Below the pieces are notes generated by a model. The model searched no databases, was not told where the DNA came from, and worked only from the letters and a program-made list of their open reading frames with translations. The position numbers and the translations under genes are program-made. From positions 12,419 to 76,418 of the forward strand of contig CAKQWE010000003.1 in assembly GCA_934277975.1 (NCBI GenBank): a DNA stretch of 64,000 nt, in the 5' to 3' direction. This document shows positions 12,157 to 18,898 of the stretch, piece by piece (the first letter of the stretch is position 1; every line of letters begins with the position of its first letter). The stretch is from an uncultured Spirochaetales bacterium. GTDB lineage: Bacteria; Spirochaetota; Spirochaetia; Sphaerochaetales; Sphaerochaetaceae.

Positions 12157-12495
12157 ATGGATAAAGGGAAGCAGTCTGAACAAGTGGTATCGGCCTATCT
12201 GGAAAACCTTGGATATTCTGTCTTGGAAAGGAATTACAGGTGTAGGTTCGGTGAGGTGGACATCATTGCATCCAAGGATGGCGTGCTGTGTTTCGTGGAG
12301 GTCAAATCCCTCACGTCAAGGTGGGATGAAAGCGAGATTTCAAGGATGGTGGGCCCTGCCAAGATGAGGCGCATAAGGTTGACTGCAATCGATTATTTGA
12401 ATACTGTTGACCACAAGGGGCGCTTTGATAACACGAGGTTCGACGTCGCTACTGTGACAAATGGATGCGTCTCCTACTACGAAGGAGTTTTCTGA
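12157..12495 (+). CDS. yraN: YraN family (UPF0102) predicted endonuclease
   Basis: 112 aa with GYSVLERNYRCRFGEVDIIASKDGVLCFVEVKS, the typical YraN core. Its last 49 codons lie inside the left 162 bp repeat. Confidence 0.85.
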   Translation: MDKGKQSEQVVSAYLENLGYSVLERNYRCRFGEVDIIASKDGVLCFVEVKSLTSRWDESEISRMVGPAKMRRIRLTAIDYLNTVDHKGRFDNTRFDVATVTNGCVSYYEGVF

Positions 12496-12508
12496 TGGAT
12501 AACAGAAA
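12347..12508 (+). repeat. left copy of the 162 bp direct repeat (attL-like)
   Basis: Identical at every base to 18737-18898 in my manual comparison. Flanking bases differ (12346 a vs 18736 g; 12509 t vs 18899 g). Confidence 0.95.
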
Positions 12509-12614: not shown

Positions 12615-13580
12615 ATGGAAGGCGACAAACTTTTCAAACATGTTTATGATTTGTCTCCGCTTCTTCTCGATACACTGCTCAGAGATCGTACAACTGGCCG
12701 TTATATCCTTTGGATGACGAATAACTACGAACAGTATGGCTCTGGGTATGGGGAGCTCTGTGAAATTACTCCAAAACTCATACTTAGAGATTCAATGTCC
12801 ATTATCAAGCCTCGTAACGAGAAATCAGTTGAGGAACAAAGCATTCGAATAAAGGGGAAAGCTGAGGTTTTTACCCCCTCGTGGGTCTGTAACTTCCAGA
12901 ACAATCTTGTAGATGAAGCGTTCTTCGGTCGGAAAAACGTCTTCAACGTTTCCGAAGGCACAATGTGGACAGCAACCGATCACGTCGATTTTTGCGAGTA
13001 TGACTGGCGGAAATACGTCACTGCCTGTCGATTGGAAATTTCATGTGGCGAAGCTCCTTATTTGGTATCTCGCTATGATACGACTACAGGACATCCCATT
13101 GATATTCATAAACGCATAGGGTTGCTTGACCGCAAGCTACGTGTGGTTGATGAGAACTGTTCTAATCAAAACTGGCACTGCTGGGTGAAGAAGGCTTTTC
13201 AGTCCATCTACGGGTATGAATGGTCAGGGGATAATTTGTTTCTCGCAAGACAGAATCTGATGTTTACATACATGGATTACTTCATTGCGCATTTCGGCAG
13301 ATTCCCGGAAGAGGCGAAATTGTCAGAAATAGCAGAGATTATTTCGTGGAATATCTGGCAGATGGATGGTATCAGGTTTGTCGTTCCATGTTCTTGTCAT
13401 GAAGAGATTGTTTGCGAATCTCTGTTCGATGATGATGTGATCAAACGGCCATGCGAAGGGTGTATGACTGAAAACGTCTGCCGTCACAACGGTGTATACA
13501 GTAACATAAGGGACTGGAAAAAGAACGAAGTTGTATCGGCAGTCAGTCTAATAGGGGGGCCGAATGCCAAACGACATTGA
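12615..13580 (+). CDS. methyltransferase-like protein lacking motif IV, with a C-terminal Cys cluster; function unknown
   Basis: 321 aa. AEVFTPSWVCNFQNNLVD (aa 83-100) resembles gamma-class N6A-MTase motif X. LEISCGEAPYL (aa 140-150) resembles motif I. IYGYEWSGDNLFLARQNL (aa 198-215) resembles the HsdM-like xYGxExxxxxxxLAxxNL element. I found no (D/N)PP(Y/F) anywhere. There is a CSCH...C...CEGC...C cluster at aa 259-289. The ORF overlaps the next gene by 17 nt. Confidence 0.6.
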   Translation: MEGDKLFKHVYDLSPLLLDTLLRDRTTGRYILWMTNNYEQYGSGYGELCEITPKLILRDSMSIIKPRNEKSVEEQSIRIKGKAEVFTPSWVCNFQNNLVDEAFFGRKNVFNVSEGTMWTATDHVDFCEYDWRKYVTACRLEISCGEAPYLVSRYDTTTGHPIDIHKRIGLLDRKLRVVDENCSNQNWHCWVKKAFQSIYGYEWSGDNLFLARQNLMFTYMDYFIAHFGRFPEEAKLSEIAEIISWNIWQMDGIRFVVPCSCHEEIVCESLFDDDVIKRPCEGCMTENVCRHNGVYSNIRDWKKNEVVSAVSLIGGPNAKRH

Positions 13581-16500
13581 ATTCAACTCGGCGTTCTCGA
13601 ATGTTCTCATATATGTATTCAGAATCAATGATGATGTCCACAAGGACTATCTCAAGATTGGAAAGACAACAATCAAGGCTGACAAGGCTACCGTTCCGAT
13701 GCTTGTACCCAACTGTTCGTTGCTTAACAAGGCAGCAAAAGCCAGGATTGACCAGTACACCAAGACTGCAAACATCACCTATGATTTGCTTCATACGGAG
13801 CTGGCCATAAGGCCGAAGAAGGATGATCCGACACGCAATGAGTATTTCACGGATTCAGATGTCCATAAGGTTCTGATTCATTCAAATATCAAACGCAAAG
13901 AGACCGATGGAGCCCGGGAATGGTTCAGGTGCAATCTTGAAACAGTGAAGAATGCCATCAGAGCAGCCAAACATCATGAAAACTCTCTGACACCAGGAGA
14001 AATCTCCATCAGTCGTGATCCTATAGTGTTCAGGCCAGAACAGCAGCAGGCCATTGCTGACACCAAAAAGTGTTTCAGAACCCACAACAAGATGCTGTGG
14101 AATGCAAAAATGCGTTTTGGTAAGACGTTGACATCCCTGCAGGTTGTCAAAGATTTGAAGTTCCGTAGGACAATCATTATCACTCATCGGCCTGTTGTGA
14201 AGAATTCCTGGGGTGAGGATTTTGAAAAGGTTTTCAACAACTCTTCAGACTGGCATTATATCAAGAAGGATGAGACTACGCCTGATGTTGAGCCTGAGGT
14301 CAACGGATACATCACAGGGGATAAGCCTTTCGTTTTGTTTGCCTCAATGCAGGATTTGCGCGGGTCCATGACTGTTGGAGGCAAGTTTGACAAGAATGAA
14401 CTGATATTCAAGACTGAGTGGGACTGCGTGATTGTTGACGAGGCCCATGAGGGTACGAAGACATCTCTGGGCGACAACGTACTGAAGACCATTATAAAGG
14501 CCGATTCATATGGTAAGACGAAGGTCTTATACCTCTCAGGAACCCCGTTCAATCTTGTCGAGGACTTTGATGAGGTAGAAGTCTTTACGTGGGACTATGT
14601 AATGGAGCAGTCAAGTAAGGCTAATTGGGATATCTGTCACAGGCTGGATTCCAACCCGTATGAAAATCTTCCAATGCTTTACATCTACACGTACGATCTA
14701 GCGCAAGAGATTCGTGGATTCATAGAGACTGAAGACAAATCCTTTAACTTCAAAGAGTTTTTCAGAGTTTGGACAGGAAAGGCCAAACAGGATGGTAAGG
14801 TTCTCAATGACGACAGCCTCATTGGTCGTTTCGTTCATGAAGATGAGGTGAAATCTTTTCTCAATCTGCTGGTAAACAAGGATGCCAATTCGAACTATCC
14901 GTATTCATGTGAAGTCTACCGCGATTATTTCAGACACTCGCTCTGGATTCTTCCTGGTGTGAAGGAAGCCAAAGCTCTCAGCGAGCTCCTTCGAGAACAT
15001 CCAATCTTCAGAGGTTTTGGAATCGCTAATGTTGCCGGTGATGGAGATGAAGAACAGGAAAGCAAAGATGCCTTAAAAGAGGTTAACGGAAAAATCACCA
15101 ATCACCCGGAGAAAACCTACACAATTACACTGTCATGTGGCCGCCTGACTACAGGTGTGACAGTCCCACCATGGACGGCGGTTCTCATGCTTTCAGGTTC
15201 ATATTCGGTCTCAGCATCCAACTACCTTCAAACGATATTTCGTGTCCAGTCTCCTGCCAATATTGATGGCCGAATTAAAGACAAGTGTTTCGTCTTCGAT
15301 TTTGCTCCCGATCGTACGCTGAAGATGGTCGCGGAGGCTGGAAAGCTCTCCACTCGACCTGGAAAGAATGATGAATCTTCAGAGAAACAAATGAGAGATC
15401 TCCTGAATTTCTGTCCAGTCATCTCCATTAAGGGATCTCTCATGAAGGCATATGATGTAGATTCGATGCTCCAGCAGATCAAGCACATCTATGCTGAACG
15501 TGTTGTAAGAAATGGATTCGACGATCCAAAACTCTACAACGACAAGTTGCTCCATCTGACAGACATCGAGAACGAAAAGTTCAAAGGCTTGAAGGAAATC
15601 GTTGGCGCATCGAAAGCCGTAGACATCAACAGGAACATTACGCTCTCCAATGTTGGACTGACGAAGGAAGAACGTGAGCTTATCGATAAGGCTGATAAAG
15701 GGAAGAAATCTGAACTGAGCGATGAAGATAAGGAACGACTTGAGAAATTGAAAAAGGCCAAGGAGGAACGCAGTAAGGCAATCAGTATCCTTCGTGCTAT
15801 TTCCATAAGAATTCCGCTCTTGATCTATGGGTCTGAAATTCCGTTCGATGAGGATATCTCTATTGAGAATTTCATCGACCTTGTGGACGATCAATCTTGG
15901 GAGGAATTCATGCCAAGCAAGGTAACAAAGGATCTGTTCCGCCAGTTTATTGAGTATTACGACAAGGACATTTTCATCGTTGCAGGGAAGTCCATCAGAG
16001 CTCTCGTGAAAGGTGCAGACGAACTAGATCCAACGACGCGCATCAAGCGCATCGCCGATGTGTTTAGGATGTTCAAGAACCCAGACAAAGAGACCGTTTT
16101 GACTCCGTGGCGAGTGGTTAACATGCATATGTCTAATACTCTTGGTGGTTGGGATTCCTTTGCCGAGGATAATCGGGAACTGCTTGAAAATCCAAGGTTC
16201 GTGGATAACGGCGATGTTACAAGGAAGTGTTTGTCTCCTGATTCCAAAGTTTTGGAAATCAATTCGAAATCTGGTTTGTATCCATTGTATATAACATATT
16301 CGATTTTTAGGGAGCGATGCAAGAATATTCCTGATAGCATCCTTACTCCAGATAAAATGGACGAACTGTGGAGTCTTACGGTTGCCGAGAATGTGTATGT
16401 TGTATGCAAGACCAAGATGGCAAGAGCGATAACTAAGCGCACATTGCTTGGATACGAAAAGGGTAGGATTAATGCTCATGCATTTGAGGATTTAATCAAC

Positions 16501-17613
16501 CAGTTCAAAAGCAAGGCAGATCAGGTGTGTGAGAGAATCAAGGGAAGCAGCTTCTGGGAAAAGAAAGGAGTGAATAAAGATATGAAGTTCGATGCAGTTG
16601 TAGGAAATCCTCCGTACGATGAAGAAGGTAACAACACAAGAAAAACTCCAATTTATCAATACTTTTATGATGCAAGTTTCAAGCTTGCTCCAATTGTATC
16701 TTTAATTACACCTGCAAGATTCCTTTTTGACGCAGGACAAACATCTTCTGAATGGAATCATAAAATGCTTGCTGACGAGCATTTTAAAGTTGTTCGGTTC
16801 TTTGTAAATTCACAAGAAGTTTTTCCATCAGTCAGCATAAAAGGTGGTGTTGCAATAACGTATTGGTGTGAATATGAGAAGTTTGGAGCAATCGGGACTT
16901 TTACTTCTTTCAGTGAATTGAACAACATTCTTCAGAAGTCGACTTCTGATATCGAAGGGAAATCTACCATGGAGTCGATTATTCAGGCGCAAGGACTTTA
17001 TAGGTTCTCTGATGTATTCATGAATAAGCATCCTGAGATATCTGAGAAAATGGGTAAAGGAACCGGAGCAAAAATTACTTCTAAAATTGTTGATCAAATG
17101 GATAACTTGTTCCCAGAAAGTTCTGACAACATCGATGGAGATGCTGTCAAGCTTCTAATACGAACGAAAACTGGAAAGAGAGCATATCGATACATAAAAA
17201 GGGAGTATTTGCAGAATAACAGATATCTTGATTCATATAACGTGATTGTTCCAGAGTCAAATGGAACAGGTGCTATCGGAGAGGTGTTATCGACTCCCCT
17301 GATCGGGGAGCCCCTGATCGGGCATACAGATACCTTCCTGAGTATTGGTGCTTTTTCGACAGAAGAAGAAGCTTCCAATTGTATGAAGTATATCAAAACA
17401 CGATATGCAAGAGTGATGCTGGGTATCCTTAAGGCAACACAGCATAATTCGCCTTCCACATGGAAATACGTTCCGATGCAGAATTTCACCGCTTCTTCCG
17501 ACATCGACTGGTCACAGTCGGTGTCGGAAATCGACCAACAACTCTACAAAAAGTACAATCTGTCACCGTATGAAATCGCATTCATTGAAGAGAATGTTCA
17601 GCCCATGGAGTGA
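13564..17613 (+). CDS. 1349 aa multidomain protein: T5orf172/GIY-YIG-like N-terminus + SF2 (SNF2/res-like) helicase + Eco57I/TaqI_C-like NPPY methyltransferase module
   Basis: aa 14-130: LKIGKT...DVHKVL...GAREWF (T5orf172-like). Helicase motifs: AKMRFGKT (aa 181-188), VIVDEAHEG (289-297), LYLSGTPF (322-329), RLTTGVTVP (527-535), QTIFRVQS (556-563). MTase-like motifs: TVLTPWRVVNMHM (844-856), VLEINSKSGLYPLY (896-909, degenerate motif I), FDAVVGNPPY (1009-1018; NPPY at nt 16606-16617). The C-terminal ...TDTFLSIGAFSTEEEASNCMKYIKTRYARVML...LYKKYNLSPYEIAFIEENV resembles TaqI_C-type target-recognition tails. Confidence 0.75.
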   Translation: MPNDIEFNSAFSNVLIYVFRINDDVHKDYLKIGKTTIKADKATVPMLVPNCSLLNKAAKARIDQYTKTANITYDLLHTELAIRPKKDDPTRNEYFTDSDVHKVLIHSNIKRKETDGAREWFRCNLETVKNAIRAAKHHENSLTPGEISISRDPIVFRPEQQQAIADTKKCFRTHNKMLWNAKMRFGKTLTSLQVVKDLKFRRTIIITHRPVVKNSWGEDFEKVFNNSSDWHYIKKDETTPDVEPEVNGYITGDKPFVLFASMQDLRGSMTVGGKFDKNELIFKTEWDCVIVDEAHEGTKTSLGDNVLKTIIKADSYGKTKVLYLSGTPFNLVEDFDEVEVFTWDYVMEQSSKANWDICHRLDSNPYENLPMLYIYTYDLAQEIRGFIETEDKSFNFKEFFRVWTGKAKQDGKVLNDDSLIGRFVHEDEVKSFLNLLVNKDANSNYPYSCEVYRDYFRHSLWILPGVKEAKALSELLREHPIFRGFGIANVAGDGDEEQESKDALKEVNGKITNHPEKTYTITLSCGRLTTGVTVPPWTAVLMLSGSYSVSASNYLQTIFRVQSPANIDGRIKDKCFVFDFAPDRTLKMVAEAGKLSTRPGKNDESSEKQMRDLLNFCPVISIKGSLMKAYDVDSMLQQIKHIYAERVVRNGFDDPKLYNDKLLHLTDIENEKFKGLKEIVGASKAVDINRNITLSNVGLTKEERELIDKADKGKKSELSDEDKERLEKLKKAKEERSKAISILRAISIRIPLLIYGSEIPFDEDISIENFIDLVDDQSWEEFMPSKVTKDLFRQFIEYYDKDIFIVAGKSIRALVKGADELDPTTRIKRIADVFRMFKNPDKETVLTPWRVVNMHMSNTLGGWDSFAEDNRELLENPRFVDNGDVTRKCLSPDSKVLEINSKSGLYPLYITYSIFRERCKNIPDSILTPDKMDELWSLTVAENVYVVCKTKMARAITKRTLLGYEKGRINAHAFEDLINQFKSKADQVCERIKGSSFWEKKGVNKDMKFDAVVGNPPYDEEGNNTRKTPIYQYFYDASFKLAPIVSLITPARFLFDAGQTSSEWNHKMLADEHFKVVRFFVNSQEVFPSVSIKGGVAITYWCEYEKFGAIGTFTSFSELNNILQKSTSDIEGKSTMESIIQAQGLYRFSDVFMNKHPEISEKMGKGTGAKITSKIVDQMDNLFPESSDNIDGDAVKLLIRTKTGKRAYRYIKREYLQNNRYLDSYNVIVPESNGTGAIGEVLSTPLIGEPLIGHTDTFLSIGAFSTEEEASNCMKYIKTRYARVMLGILKATQHNSPSTWKYVPMQNFTASSDIDWSQSVSEIDQQLYKKYNLSPYEIAFIEENVQPME

Positions 17614-17616
17614 CTT

Positions 17617-17796
17617 ATGCCAAAAAAGACGAAAGACAGCGTAGCTATCTCCATGAGATTGGAGAAGACTGTTTATGAGAGGCTGAGAGCTTATGCAGAA
17701 GATAAGGGACAAACGTATACGACCGCCCTTGAACGTATTATCACAGCTTACCTAGATGAGCGAGAACAGAAACTAAAGGAAAAAGAGGAAAGGTAA
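17617..17796 (+). CDS. 59 aa ribbon-helix-helix (CopG/Arc/MetJ-like) protein
   Basis: Not in the ORF track because it is under 60 aa. Translation: MPKKTKDSVAISMRLEKTVYERLRAYAEDKGQTYTTALERIITAYLDEREQKLKEKEER. This gives a beta strand (ISMRLEK) followed by two helices. GGAG lies 6 nt upstream of the ATG. Its TAA overlaps the next ATG (TAATG at 17794-17798). Confidence 0.6.
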   Translation: MPKKTKDSVAISMRLEKTVYERLRAYAEDKGQTYTTALERIITAYLDEREQKLKEKEER

Positions 17797-18689
17797 TGGG
17801 AATATTCTACAACATATCCGTTGAAGGGGATGACTCAAACGGTATCAAGGTTATCGAGAACCCAACGAAGACTTTAAAGGCTCTTTTGTTTCCTAGAGAG
17901 TGTATACACGAGTTCAACCTTCGACCAGAGGCAGAACAGGCAGGTGTATACATTCTCTACAACTCGATGGATAGGAATGAACAGCCCCACATCTATATTG
18001 GACAGACTGGATACGGAATCACATCTAGATTGTCGAACCACAACAGGACGAAGGATTTTTGGAACCAGGCACTTGTTTTCGTTGAGAAGGGTGATTTCCT
18101 TAACCTAAATGGCTCTCATGCAAAGATAATCGAATCTAGGCTCATCTCTAAAGCAGGGGAATGCGGTGCTGTTGTTATGGAAAACAACACTGGATCGAGA
18201 GCTCCAAGAGTACAACCTTCAGATCAAATGGCTGCCGATACTTGGGCAGAAGAAGTTGTGACTATCACTAGACTTCTTGGCCTTGCATTCTTCCATGGAA
18301 CTAAATCTCAGATTCCAGATGCTAGTACAGCAGCTATCTCCGTTCAGGCTGTCAAAAGTGATGTTCCAAATGGAACATACACACTTACCAAAAATAAGAA
18401 GGTCGATGGGAAAACGATAAAGGCGACTGCTGTAGTTAAAGATGGAGAGTGGGTTATTAAGAAAGGCTCTGTTTTGAGTGTTTGTGAACATCCTAAAGTT
18501 TCAGAAGGGAATAAGGAACTGAGGAAAAAGCTGGAGCTTGATTTTCAAGGCAACCTTCTTGAGGATTTCAATCTTGGTAGTGTGTCGCCAAGCACCGCAG
18601 GATGCGTTGTTTTAAACCAACCGTCATGCAATGGTTGGACTAGCTGGTTTACAGAGGATAATAAACCCATAGACATATTTAGAAATTAA
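17796..18689 (+). CDS. GIY-YIG nuclease-family protein with a DUF4357-like C-terminal domain
   Basis: GVYILYN...HIYIGQTGYGITSRLSNH...FWNQALVF...AKIIESRLI matches the GIY-YIG core. The C-terminal SPSTAGCVVLNQPSCNGWTSWFTEDNKPIDIFR matches my recollection of DUF4357. Confidence 0.7.
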   Translation: MGIFYNISVEGDDSNGIKVIENPTKTLKALLFPRECIHEFNLRPEAEQAGVYILYNSMDRNEQPHIYIGQTGYGITSRLSNHNRTKDFWNQALVFVEKGDFLNLNGSHAKIIESRLISKAGECGAVVMENNTGSRAPRVQPSDQMAADTWAEEVVTITRLLGLAFFHGTKSQIPDASTAAISVQAVKSDVPNGTYTLTKNKKVDGKTIKATAVVKDGEWVIKKGSVLSVCEHPKVSEGNKELRKKLELDFQGNLLEDFNLGSVSPSTAGCVVLNQPSCNGWTSWFTEDNKPIDIFRN

Positions 18690-18736: not shown

Positions 18737-18885
18737 TGGTGGGCCCTGCCAAGATGAGGCGCATAAGGTTGACTGCAATCGATTATTTGAATACTGTTGA
18801 CCACAAGGGGCGCTTTGATAACACGAGGTTCGACGTCGCTACTGTGACAAATGGATGCGTCTCCTACTACGAAGGAGTTTTCTGA
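18737..18885 (+). pseudogene. duplicated 3' fragment of yraN (last 49 codons)
   Basis: It encodes VGPAKMRRIRLTAIDYLNTVDHKGRFDNTRFDVATVTNGCVSYYEGVF, identical to the end of yraN. ORF 18697-18885 fuses it to unrelated island sequence. The YraN catalytic core is missing. Confidence 0.85.
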
Positions 18886-18898
18886 TGGATAACAGAAA
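18737..18898 (+). repeat. right copy of the 162 bp direct repeat (attR-like)
   Basis: Identical to 12347-12508. Confidence 0.95.

Follow-up and report, generated by a model that had tools for sequence, protein, structure and literature searches.

A predicted two-gene, ATP-dependent restriction-modification locus with a T5orf172 nuclease-type head in an uncultured Spirochaetales bacterium

Does one long gene of an uncultured Spirochaetales bacterium encode a complete restriction-modification (R-M) enzyme in a single chain, and if so, does that enzyme act alone? The window analysed here is a stretch of 64,000 nucleotides (nt) of contig CAKQWE010000003.1 (positions 12,419 to 76,418), and all coordinates below are those of the window. 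A frame that runs from ATG to stop on its + strand, 13564-17613, codes for 1349 amino acids (aa), and an earlier note, made from the sequence, had read the product as five successive parts that follow the logic of the Type ISP R-M enzymes. Our analysis describes the large protein as a predicted all-in-one R-M enzyme made of a T5orf172/GIY-YIG nuclease, a motor ATPase, an adenine methylase and a target reader, and finds a second gene directly upstream of it that belongs to the same locus. The two genes together probably constitute an ATP-dependent R-M system that uses the Type ISP principle with different parts.

The large protein and its modules

The reading frame of the large gene was confirmed, and the motifs that the earlier note had quoted for the five parts were all found at the residues it had assigned to them: LKIGKT at 30-35, HKVL at 101-104, GAREWF at 116-121, GKT at 186-188, DEAH at 292-295, SGT at 325-327, Q556 and R560, TVLTPWRVVNMHM at 844-856, VLEINSKSGLYPLY at 896-909 and FDAVVGNPPY at 1009-1018. 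More than 8000 database proteins match the large protein, hundreds of them over the full length at 53-92% identity, so chance is excluded as its origin; the gene is real, widespread and under selection. Residue conservation was read from an alignment of 36 sequences with identities down to 39%, to which all statements on invariant residues of the large protein refer, and most of the quoted motifs are invariant in it. Searches by sequence of all PDB chains with the whole protein, a profile of its head (which found no chain), a full-length profile and the methyltransferase core gave no significant match.

The N-terminal head (aa 1-150; 13564..14013, + strand) contains LIY (15-17), KIG (31-33), R61, H101 and E119-W-F, and its assignment to T5orf172, within the GIY-YIG superfamily, is borne out as follows: in isolation the head matches the Pfam family T5orf172 (PF10544) with 27.1 bits and E=6.1e-6, above the cut-off of 20 (the match in the whole-protein scan is borderline, at 19.9 bits and E=1e-3), and of 85 head sequences taken from 50%-identity representatives of the family 46 match T5orf172 at E<=0.01 and 16 match the related MUG113. 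Residues Y17, K31, G33, R61, E119 and W120 are invariant. T5orf172 domains are members of the GIY-YIG endonuclease superfamily with a catalytic Arg and Glu, one T5orf172 protein, Gp88 of ICP1, has been described as an origin-directed nuclease, and by analogy with this motif the conserved Tyr, Arg and Glu (Y17, R61 and E119) may have catalytic roles here (PMC8263062). A phmmer search of 1.84 billion representatives with the head gave 342 matches, nearly all of them proteins of about 1340 aa with the same architecture or fragments of such proteins, and did not connect it with T5orf172 proteins of any other architecture; we therefore regard the head as a T5orf172 subgroup of its own, specific to this family. 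Neither NCBIfam nor PHROGs was informative for it. Pfam found no Mrr_cat match in the large protein, and together with the T5orf172 score this upholds the earlier view that the head stands in the place of an Mrr-type PD-(D/E)XK nuclease.

Next to the head lies a superfamily 2 (SF2) helicase-like ATPase (aa 151-640; 14014..15483, + strand), which is matched by Pfam ResIII at E=1.9e-14 and more weakly by SNF2 and DEAD. Besides RPEQ, the GKT, DEAH and SGT motifs listed above, LTTG (motif V) and QTIFRVQ (motif VI) are present, and all of the SF2 motifs are invariant, including G186-K187-T188, D292-E-A-H295, S325-G-T327 and Q556 and R560 of motif VI. The motif set is thus as complete as the earlier note had said, but its placing of the end of the helicase at aa 565 does not hold, since the C-terminal lobe extends through conserved FDFAPDRTL and CPVI blocks to about aa 640. 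A linker or coupler follows (aa 641-830; 15484..16053, + strand), in which the charged coiled stretch previously noted at about aa 700-740 is visible in the sequence, and in which a helical bundle precedes the methyltransferase (helices 741-836, modelled by AlphaFold2 with a predicted local distance difference test (pLDDT) score of about 85-91).

The core of a gamma-class N6-adenine methyltransferase (MTase) occupies aa 831-1100 (16054..16863, + strand). Pfam Eco57I (PF07669) matches aa 942-1087 at E=2.5e-27, and the motifs stand in the order X-I-IV, with TVLTPW at 844-849, a variant motif I (LEINSKSGLYPLY, in which LEINSK.G spans 897-904) and NPPY at 1015-1018. Motif IV is present as NPP(Y/F/W) in 125/125 homologues of the large protein. 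T844, T847 and P848 of motif X and F1009, N1015, P1016 and P1017 of motif IV are invariant, and motif I is nearly so (L897, E898, N900, K902, G904 and Y906); residues of catalytic type are thereby conserved in all three enzymatic modules. The AlphaFold2 model of the C-terminal 609 aa (741-1349) has a pLDDT of 88.2 and a predicted template modelling (pTM) score of 0.82, and its strands lie where the motifs would place them: 896-899 for motif I, 944-948 for II, 970-973 for III and 1011-1014, immediately followed by NPPY, for IV. Foldseek gave 103 PDB matches to this model at E<=0.001, and the 50 matches listed are all DNA adenine-MTase enzymes or modules: CamA (E=2.5e-13), PglX/BrxX (E=2.7e-10), LlaBIII (E=2e-9), BpuSI (E=1.4e-8), DrdV (E=5e-8), MmeI (E=1.3e-7) and LlaGI (E=1.6e-7), with M.BseCI and Type I HsdM also among the matches. 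The gamma-class motif order and the MTase fold, on which the earlier note had staked its view of the C-terminal region, are both supported by these results, and the C-terminal third is confidently modelled as a gamma-class N6-adenine MTase followed by a target-recognition domain (TRD).

This TRD, with a conserved C-terminal tail, occupies aa 1101-1349 (16864..17610, + strand) and is the variable module of the family. Three homologues (P0005-P0007) that are about 80% identical to the query elsewhere are 34-39% identical to it over aa 1131-1260, and a fourth (P0008), 87-90% identical across head and motor, falls to 13-28% after its NPPF motif. Such modular replacement of the TRD between nearly identical enzymes is a hallmark of specificity switching in R-M systems, and the exchangeable TRD could allow the family to be mined for new specificities. 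The DNA that codes for the TRD (16.2-17.2 kb) has a GC content of 0.37-0.39, the lowest of the islet in which the genes lie (below), against 0.43-0.45 in the rest of the gene and about 0.50 in the flanks, in keeping with a recent import of the specificity module. The TRD is covered by the Foldseek alignments to CamA and PglX, and also by the C-terminal part of the PADLOC profile discussed below. The earlier comparison with TaqI_C-type TRDs is not specifically supported, as a Pfam scan of the large protein gave no TaqI_C match.

The partner gene

The earlier note had described a single polypeptide of Type ISP logic and had asked whether its MTase module needs an upstream partner; the genomic evidence speaks against a self-sufficient enzyme. 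A 321-aa partner is encoded at 12615..13580 on the + strand, and the last 17 nt of its gene overlap the start of the large gene. A homologue of it lies directly upstream and on the same strand in 74/74 GTDB loci (those with more than 1 kb of upstream sequence), and likewise in four metagenomic loci (L003-L006), so that the pairing of the two genes is strict. The partner is most likely an obligate accessory subunit.

What is this protein? No Pfam or NCBIfam family covers it, and PHROGs gave no useful match either; the PADLOC profile MTase_II PDLC03390 matches it at E=4.5e-104, and the NCBI name for it is 'restriction endonuclease subunit M'. Its motifs are EVFTP (X), the motif I-like LEISCGEAPYL and the motif II-like YGYEWSGD, and four invariant residues (C261, C280, C283 and H291) point to a Cys3His zinc ribbon. 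The AlphaFold2 model (pLDDT 88.4, pTM 0.89) has no significant Foldseek match in the PDB; among the ten best of the weak matches seven are MTase modules (LlaGI, BrxX/PglX, DrdV), with BsaXI, MmeI and LlaBIII lower. The matches of the model in BFVD are short proteins (153-199 aa) named 'N-6 DNA methylase', the best of them at E=1.7e-12 with a template modelling score of 0.85. A bridge in sequence is provided by the 230-aa 'N-6 DNA methylase' that precedes the homologue of the large gene on the Lactococcus plasmid pCV56A: BLASTP aligns the partner with it at E=3e-11, it has canonical EVFTP and LEPAAGDGNF motifs, and it matches only the N-terminal third of MTase families (Pfam N6_Mtase positions 20-105 of 311 and, weakly, MmeI_Mtase positions 21-97 of 259). 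Because of this bridge and the BFVD matches, we take the partner to be the N-terminal, cofactor-binding half of a gamma-class N6-adenine MTase that is without the catalytic loop, (N/D/S)PP(Y/F/W) being absent from all members of the partner family (0/120). The labels 'restriction endonuclease subunit M', 'N-6 DNA methylase' and PADLOC MTase_II thus probably mislabel it as an active methyltransferase.

Two other identities for the partner were considered and set aside. That it works as an additional MTase in its own right, like M.Eco57I, is not plausible, given the missing catalytic loop, and that D155...D172-R-K174 marks a real PD-(D/E)XK nuclease was rejected, the model being a Rossmann-like half plus a zinc ribbon whose structural neighbours are MTases. 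A likeness seen by eye between motifs of the two proteins (EVFTPSW with VLTPWRV, and LEISCGEAPYL with LEINSKSGLYPLY) has no statistical support: hhalign of the partner family against the MTase region of the large protein gave a probability below 1%.

The proposed mechanism and its alternatives

How would these parts work together? We propose that the C-terminal TRD reads an asymmetric DNA target, at which the NPPY methyltransferase would mark host sites with N6-methyladenine (hemimethylation of an asymmetric site). From unmodified sites the SF2 ATPase would pull DNA past the enzyme and the N-terminal T5orf172/GIY-YIG domain would nick or cleave the translocated DNA, with double-strand breaks probably arising when motors converge or stall. 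The co-translated partner would most likely bind the MTase module and license or regulate the choice between methylation and restriction, perhaps through binding or sensing of S-adenosylmethionine (SAM). A narrower form of this last idea, in which cofactor handling and catalysis are split over two polypeptides and the partner is the SAM-binding or SAM-sensing licensing subunit of a large protein with non-canonical motifs I and II, is tentative and on present evidence doubtful.

Several points weigh against the mechanism as a whole. Motif I of the large protein has a single Gly (G904) and no GxG, and the predicted beta-2 strand ends in VVCKT, without the acidic residue of motif II, which leaves doubt as to whether the large protein binds SAM on its own. 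The GIY-YIG fold of the head rests on hidden Markov model scores and conserved residues. Neither phmmer nor the profile of the 36 sequences found a match to LlaGI or LlaBIII at E<=10 among all PDB chains. So far as we found, no member of the family has been characterised: the literature on T5orf172 or GIY-YIG with Type ISP and on the lactococcal defensome yielded no close homologue of the same architecture as a characterised enzyme, and the architecture is likewise undescribed there. In addition, no restriction was seen with the DnmA-YeeB-YeeC cluster of Bacillus subtilis (PMC9973331).

Is the ATPase then a translocating motor at all? The large protein might instead be a Type IIG/IIL- or Type III-like enzyme that uses its ATPase only for long-range communication or as a conformational switch and cuts at a set position close to its recognition site, like Eco57I, MmeI, DrdV, EcoP15I and CglI. 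The sole R-M profile that matches the protein is in fact the 'REase_MTase_IIG' profile of PADLOC/DefenseFinder (PDLC03626, 1359 positions, 162 bits), which is collinear with it (aa 156-308 on positions 158-305 and aa 1000-1346 on positions 1003-1357, with no match over the head or aa 320-1000), and existing pipelines therefore already flag the large protein as a putative Type IIG R-M enzyme; the Pfam matches are to Eco57I and to 'Type III restriction enzyme res subunit', and the model of its MTase and TRD scores about equally against LlaBIII and against BpuSI, DrdV and MmeI. Set against this, a complete and invariant SF2 motor of about 490 aa would be an expensive switch, and the nuclease stands at the far N-terminus with the motor as its neighbour, the Type ISP arrangement, whereas in Type IIG/IIL it adjoins the MTase. 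We regard cleavage at a fixed site as unlikely.

The unusual motifs I and II bear on a second alternative, namely that the MTase-like module is a catalytically inert DNA reader and the locus a methylation-independent or partner-dependent defence nuclease-translocase, or else an orphan or relic epigenetic element as has been proposed for DnmA-YeeB-YeeC of B. subtilis. The better cofactor-binding motifs of the partner, which is itself without motif IV, and the lack of restriction by the B. subtilis cluster point the same way. The earlier note had called motif I degenerate; the single Gly on which that judgement was based is there, but the motif is nearly invariant across the family and is therefore a conserved variant rather than a product of decay. 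Motif I of M.TaqI (LEPACAHGPF) also has a single Gly. Together, the near-invariance of motif I and the occurrence of NPP(Y/F/W) in every homologue argue for purifying selection on the active-site loops. Moreover, an unprotected sequence-directed nuclease would be toxic to its own host, and swapping of TRDs is only sensible if the specificities of modification and restriction change together. We consider an inert MTase module quite unlikely, and retain a working methyltransferase in the two-gene R-M system that we favour.

The islet, the family and known systems

Both R-M genes sit in a 6,390-bp islet with a GC content of 0.43-0.45 (about 0.50 in the flanks), and a perfect 162-bp direct repeat marks its borders. 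The left copy, 12347..12508, consists of the 3' end of yraN/UPF0102 plus 13 nt, and the right copy lies at 18737..18898. A metagenomic contig (L089), 97% identical, joins window position 12508 directly to 18899 and so represents the empty site; the islet is polymorphic for its insertion or deletion. It contains no integrase or transposase. The upstream neighbour YraN/UPF0102 (12157-12495) has weak Mrr_cat and NERD matches, but as a conserved housekeeping gene that the empty site carries too it should not be taken for the nuclease of the system.

Just 3' of the large gene lie an ORF (open reading frame) for a 59-aa Arc/RelB-like ribbon-helix-helix protein (17617-17796) and a gene for a 297-aa protein (17796-18689). 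The latter is matched by the PADLOC candidate PDC-S14 at E=2.5e-51 and also by phrog_12629, with weak GIY-YIG (aa 49-94) and RAMA/DUF4357 (aa 263-296) matches; RAMA is a domain predicted to discriminate N6-methyladenine (PMC4738411). A homologue of the 297-aa protein has the same position in locus L063, and in L005 and L006 the region is broken by a transposase gene. The 297-aa gene is absent from most genomes and lies outside the conserved core.

No conserved third gene follows the pair in the other loci, where the next ORFs are mostly singleton clusters with unrelated domains. In 22/66 loci (L007-L086) the next ORF begins 6-30 nt past the stop codon of the large gene, and these ORFs are unrelated to one another. 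The downstream ORFs that were scanned include Schlafen/AlbA_2+HATPase_c_4, DUF3644, AAA_15/AAA_21, DUF2971 and DUF488 proteins and proteins of 776 and 1384 aa to which no domain was assigned. Schlafen/AlbA_2, AAA_15/AAA_21 and DUF488 are domains familiar from defence loci. The variability looks like the usual neighbourhood of a defence island, and the spot after the large gene may be a hot spot for variable cargo that is tightly coupled to the R-M pair.

Relatives of the large protein were found in at least 579 GTDB species (in a scan of one genome per species) from the Bacillota, Bacteroidota, Spirochaetota, Actinomycetota, Pseudomonadota, Ignavibacteriota and Mycoplasmatota. Cultured carriers include Pseudoflavonifractor capillosus ATCC 29799, Treponema berlinense ATCC BAA-909 and Parabacteroides massiliensis SN4. 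The majority of copies lie on chromosomes, within variable islands, and homologues also occur on 89 plasmids, conjugative and mobilisable ones and plasmids of lactic acid bacteria among them; the family spreads horizontally. Gut, rumen and dairy bacteria carry it very commonly, and in strains of industrial and medical relevance it is likely to shape resistance to phages and barriers to transformation. A plasmid subfamily of Lactococcus and Enterococcus, with about 43% identity and 1452 aa, has an extra DUF4145 domain before the T5orf172 head; in the example from pCV56A of L. lactis CV56 (L087, NC_017483.1 3518-7876) and its kin the partner is shorter (230 aa), has the canonical motif I LEPAAGDGNF and is without the zinc ribbon. 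On pL6-1 of Lactobacillus amylolyticus (L088, NZ_CP020458.1 27512-34343) the large gene is annotated as two coding sequences (1297 and 190 aa), which may reflect a frameshift, and the order of the two genes is reversed, with the half-MTase partner (226 aa) downstream of the large gene; after it comes a stand-alone restriction endonuclease (Mrr_N+Mrr_cat). That the family serves mobile elements as a factor for anti-restriction or establishment, shielding incoming DNA like a DarB-type MTase-helicase rather than defending a host, is highly improbable: the plasmid homologues and partial matches in a few phage contigs would suit it, but no phage record has a region covering >=80% of the query, the copies are mostly chromosomal, and DarB-type proteins are not known to have a conserved nuclease head or a swappable TRD.

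How, finally, does an ATP-dependent R-M pair of this make-up compare with systems already described? Its large protein resembles the Type ISP enzymes LlaGI and LlaBIII in logic, with the same N-to-C order of nuclease, SF2 helicase-like ATPase, gamma-class N6-adenine MTase and TRD in one chain, and with a TRD that, as reported for LlaBIII and LlaGI, is exchangeable there too while the remainder is nearly identical. The structural matches of its MTase and TRD to LlaBIII and LlaGI are generic matches of fold and are weaker than those to CamA and PglX. The domain order that the earlier note had likened to Type ISP therefore stands, but membership does not: the nuclease is of the T5orf172/GIY-YIG and not of the Mrr PD-(D/E)XK kind, sequence homology to LlaGI and LlaBIII was not found, the large protein is about 220 aa shorter, and it has an obligate second gene whereas the Type ISP enzymes are self-contained.

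The DnmA(YeeA)-YeeB-YeeC systems, compared here by domains and published descriptions, have the same three activities and a nuclease of the same T5orf172 family (PMC2731913, PMC9973331). Morgan et al. in 2009 predicted that systems of an MTase-TRD, a helicase and a GIY-YIG protein are helicase-dependent R-M systems with single-strand modification (PMC2731913), and according to a later report such systems have been tested in part, deletion of dnmA or yeeB from a split DnmA-YeeB-YeeC system of Vibrio having raised phage sensitivity (PMC9973331). Those systems differ in having three genes where nuclease, helicase and MTase are here one chain, in an MTase that is MmeI-like where ours is Pfam Eco57I and Eco57I/CamA-like, and in having no counterpart to the extra half-MTase partner. 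The large protein has no MmeI_* Pfam match at E<=1, and only the Lactococcus-type partner touches MmeI_Mtase, weakly.

The Type IIG/IIL enzymes (Eco57I, BpuSI, MmeI and DrdV) share the fusion of an Eco57I-type MTase core and TRD to a nuclease, but in the characterised ones that nuclease is of the PD-(D/E)XK kind and there is no ATPase motor, whereas a complete SF2 ATPase is present here. The best structural matches to the MTase and TRD, CamA (the orphan N6-adenine MTase of Clostridioides difficile) and PglX/BrxX of BREX, have neither a nuclease nor a motor domain in the same chain. To our knowledge, PD-(D/E)XK nucleases do the cutting in every ATP-dependent R-M enzyme characterised so far (Types I, ISP and III), and a GIY-YIG/T5orf172 nuclease coupled to a motor would bring another cleavage chemistry to a translocating enzyme. 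If the split of cofactor handling and catalysis is true as well, the locus would represent a new subtype of ATP-dependent R-M system, with a GIY-YIG nuclease and an obligate half-MTase subunit, in hundreds of species.

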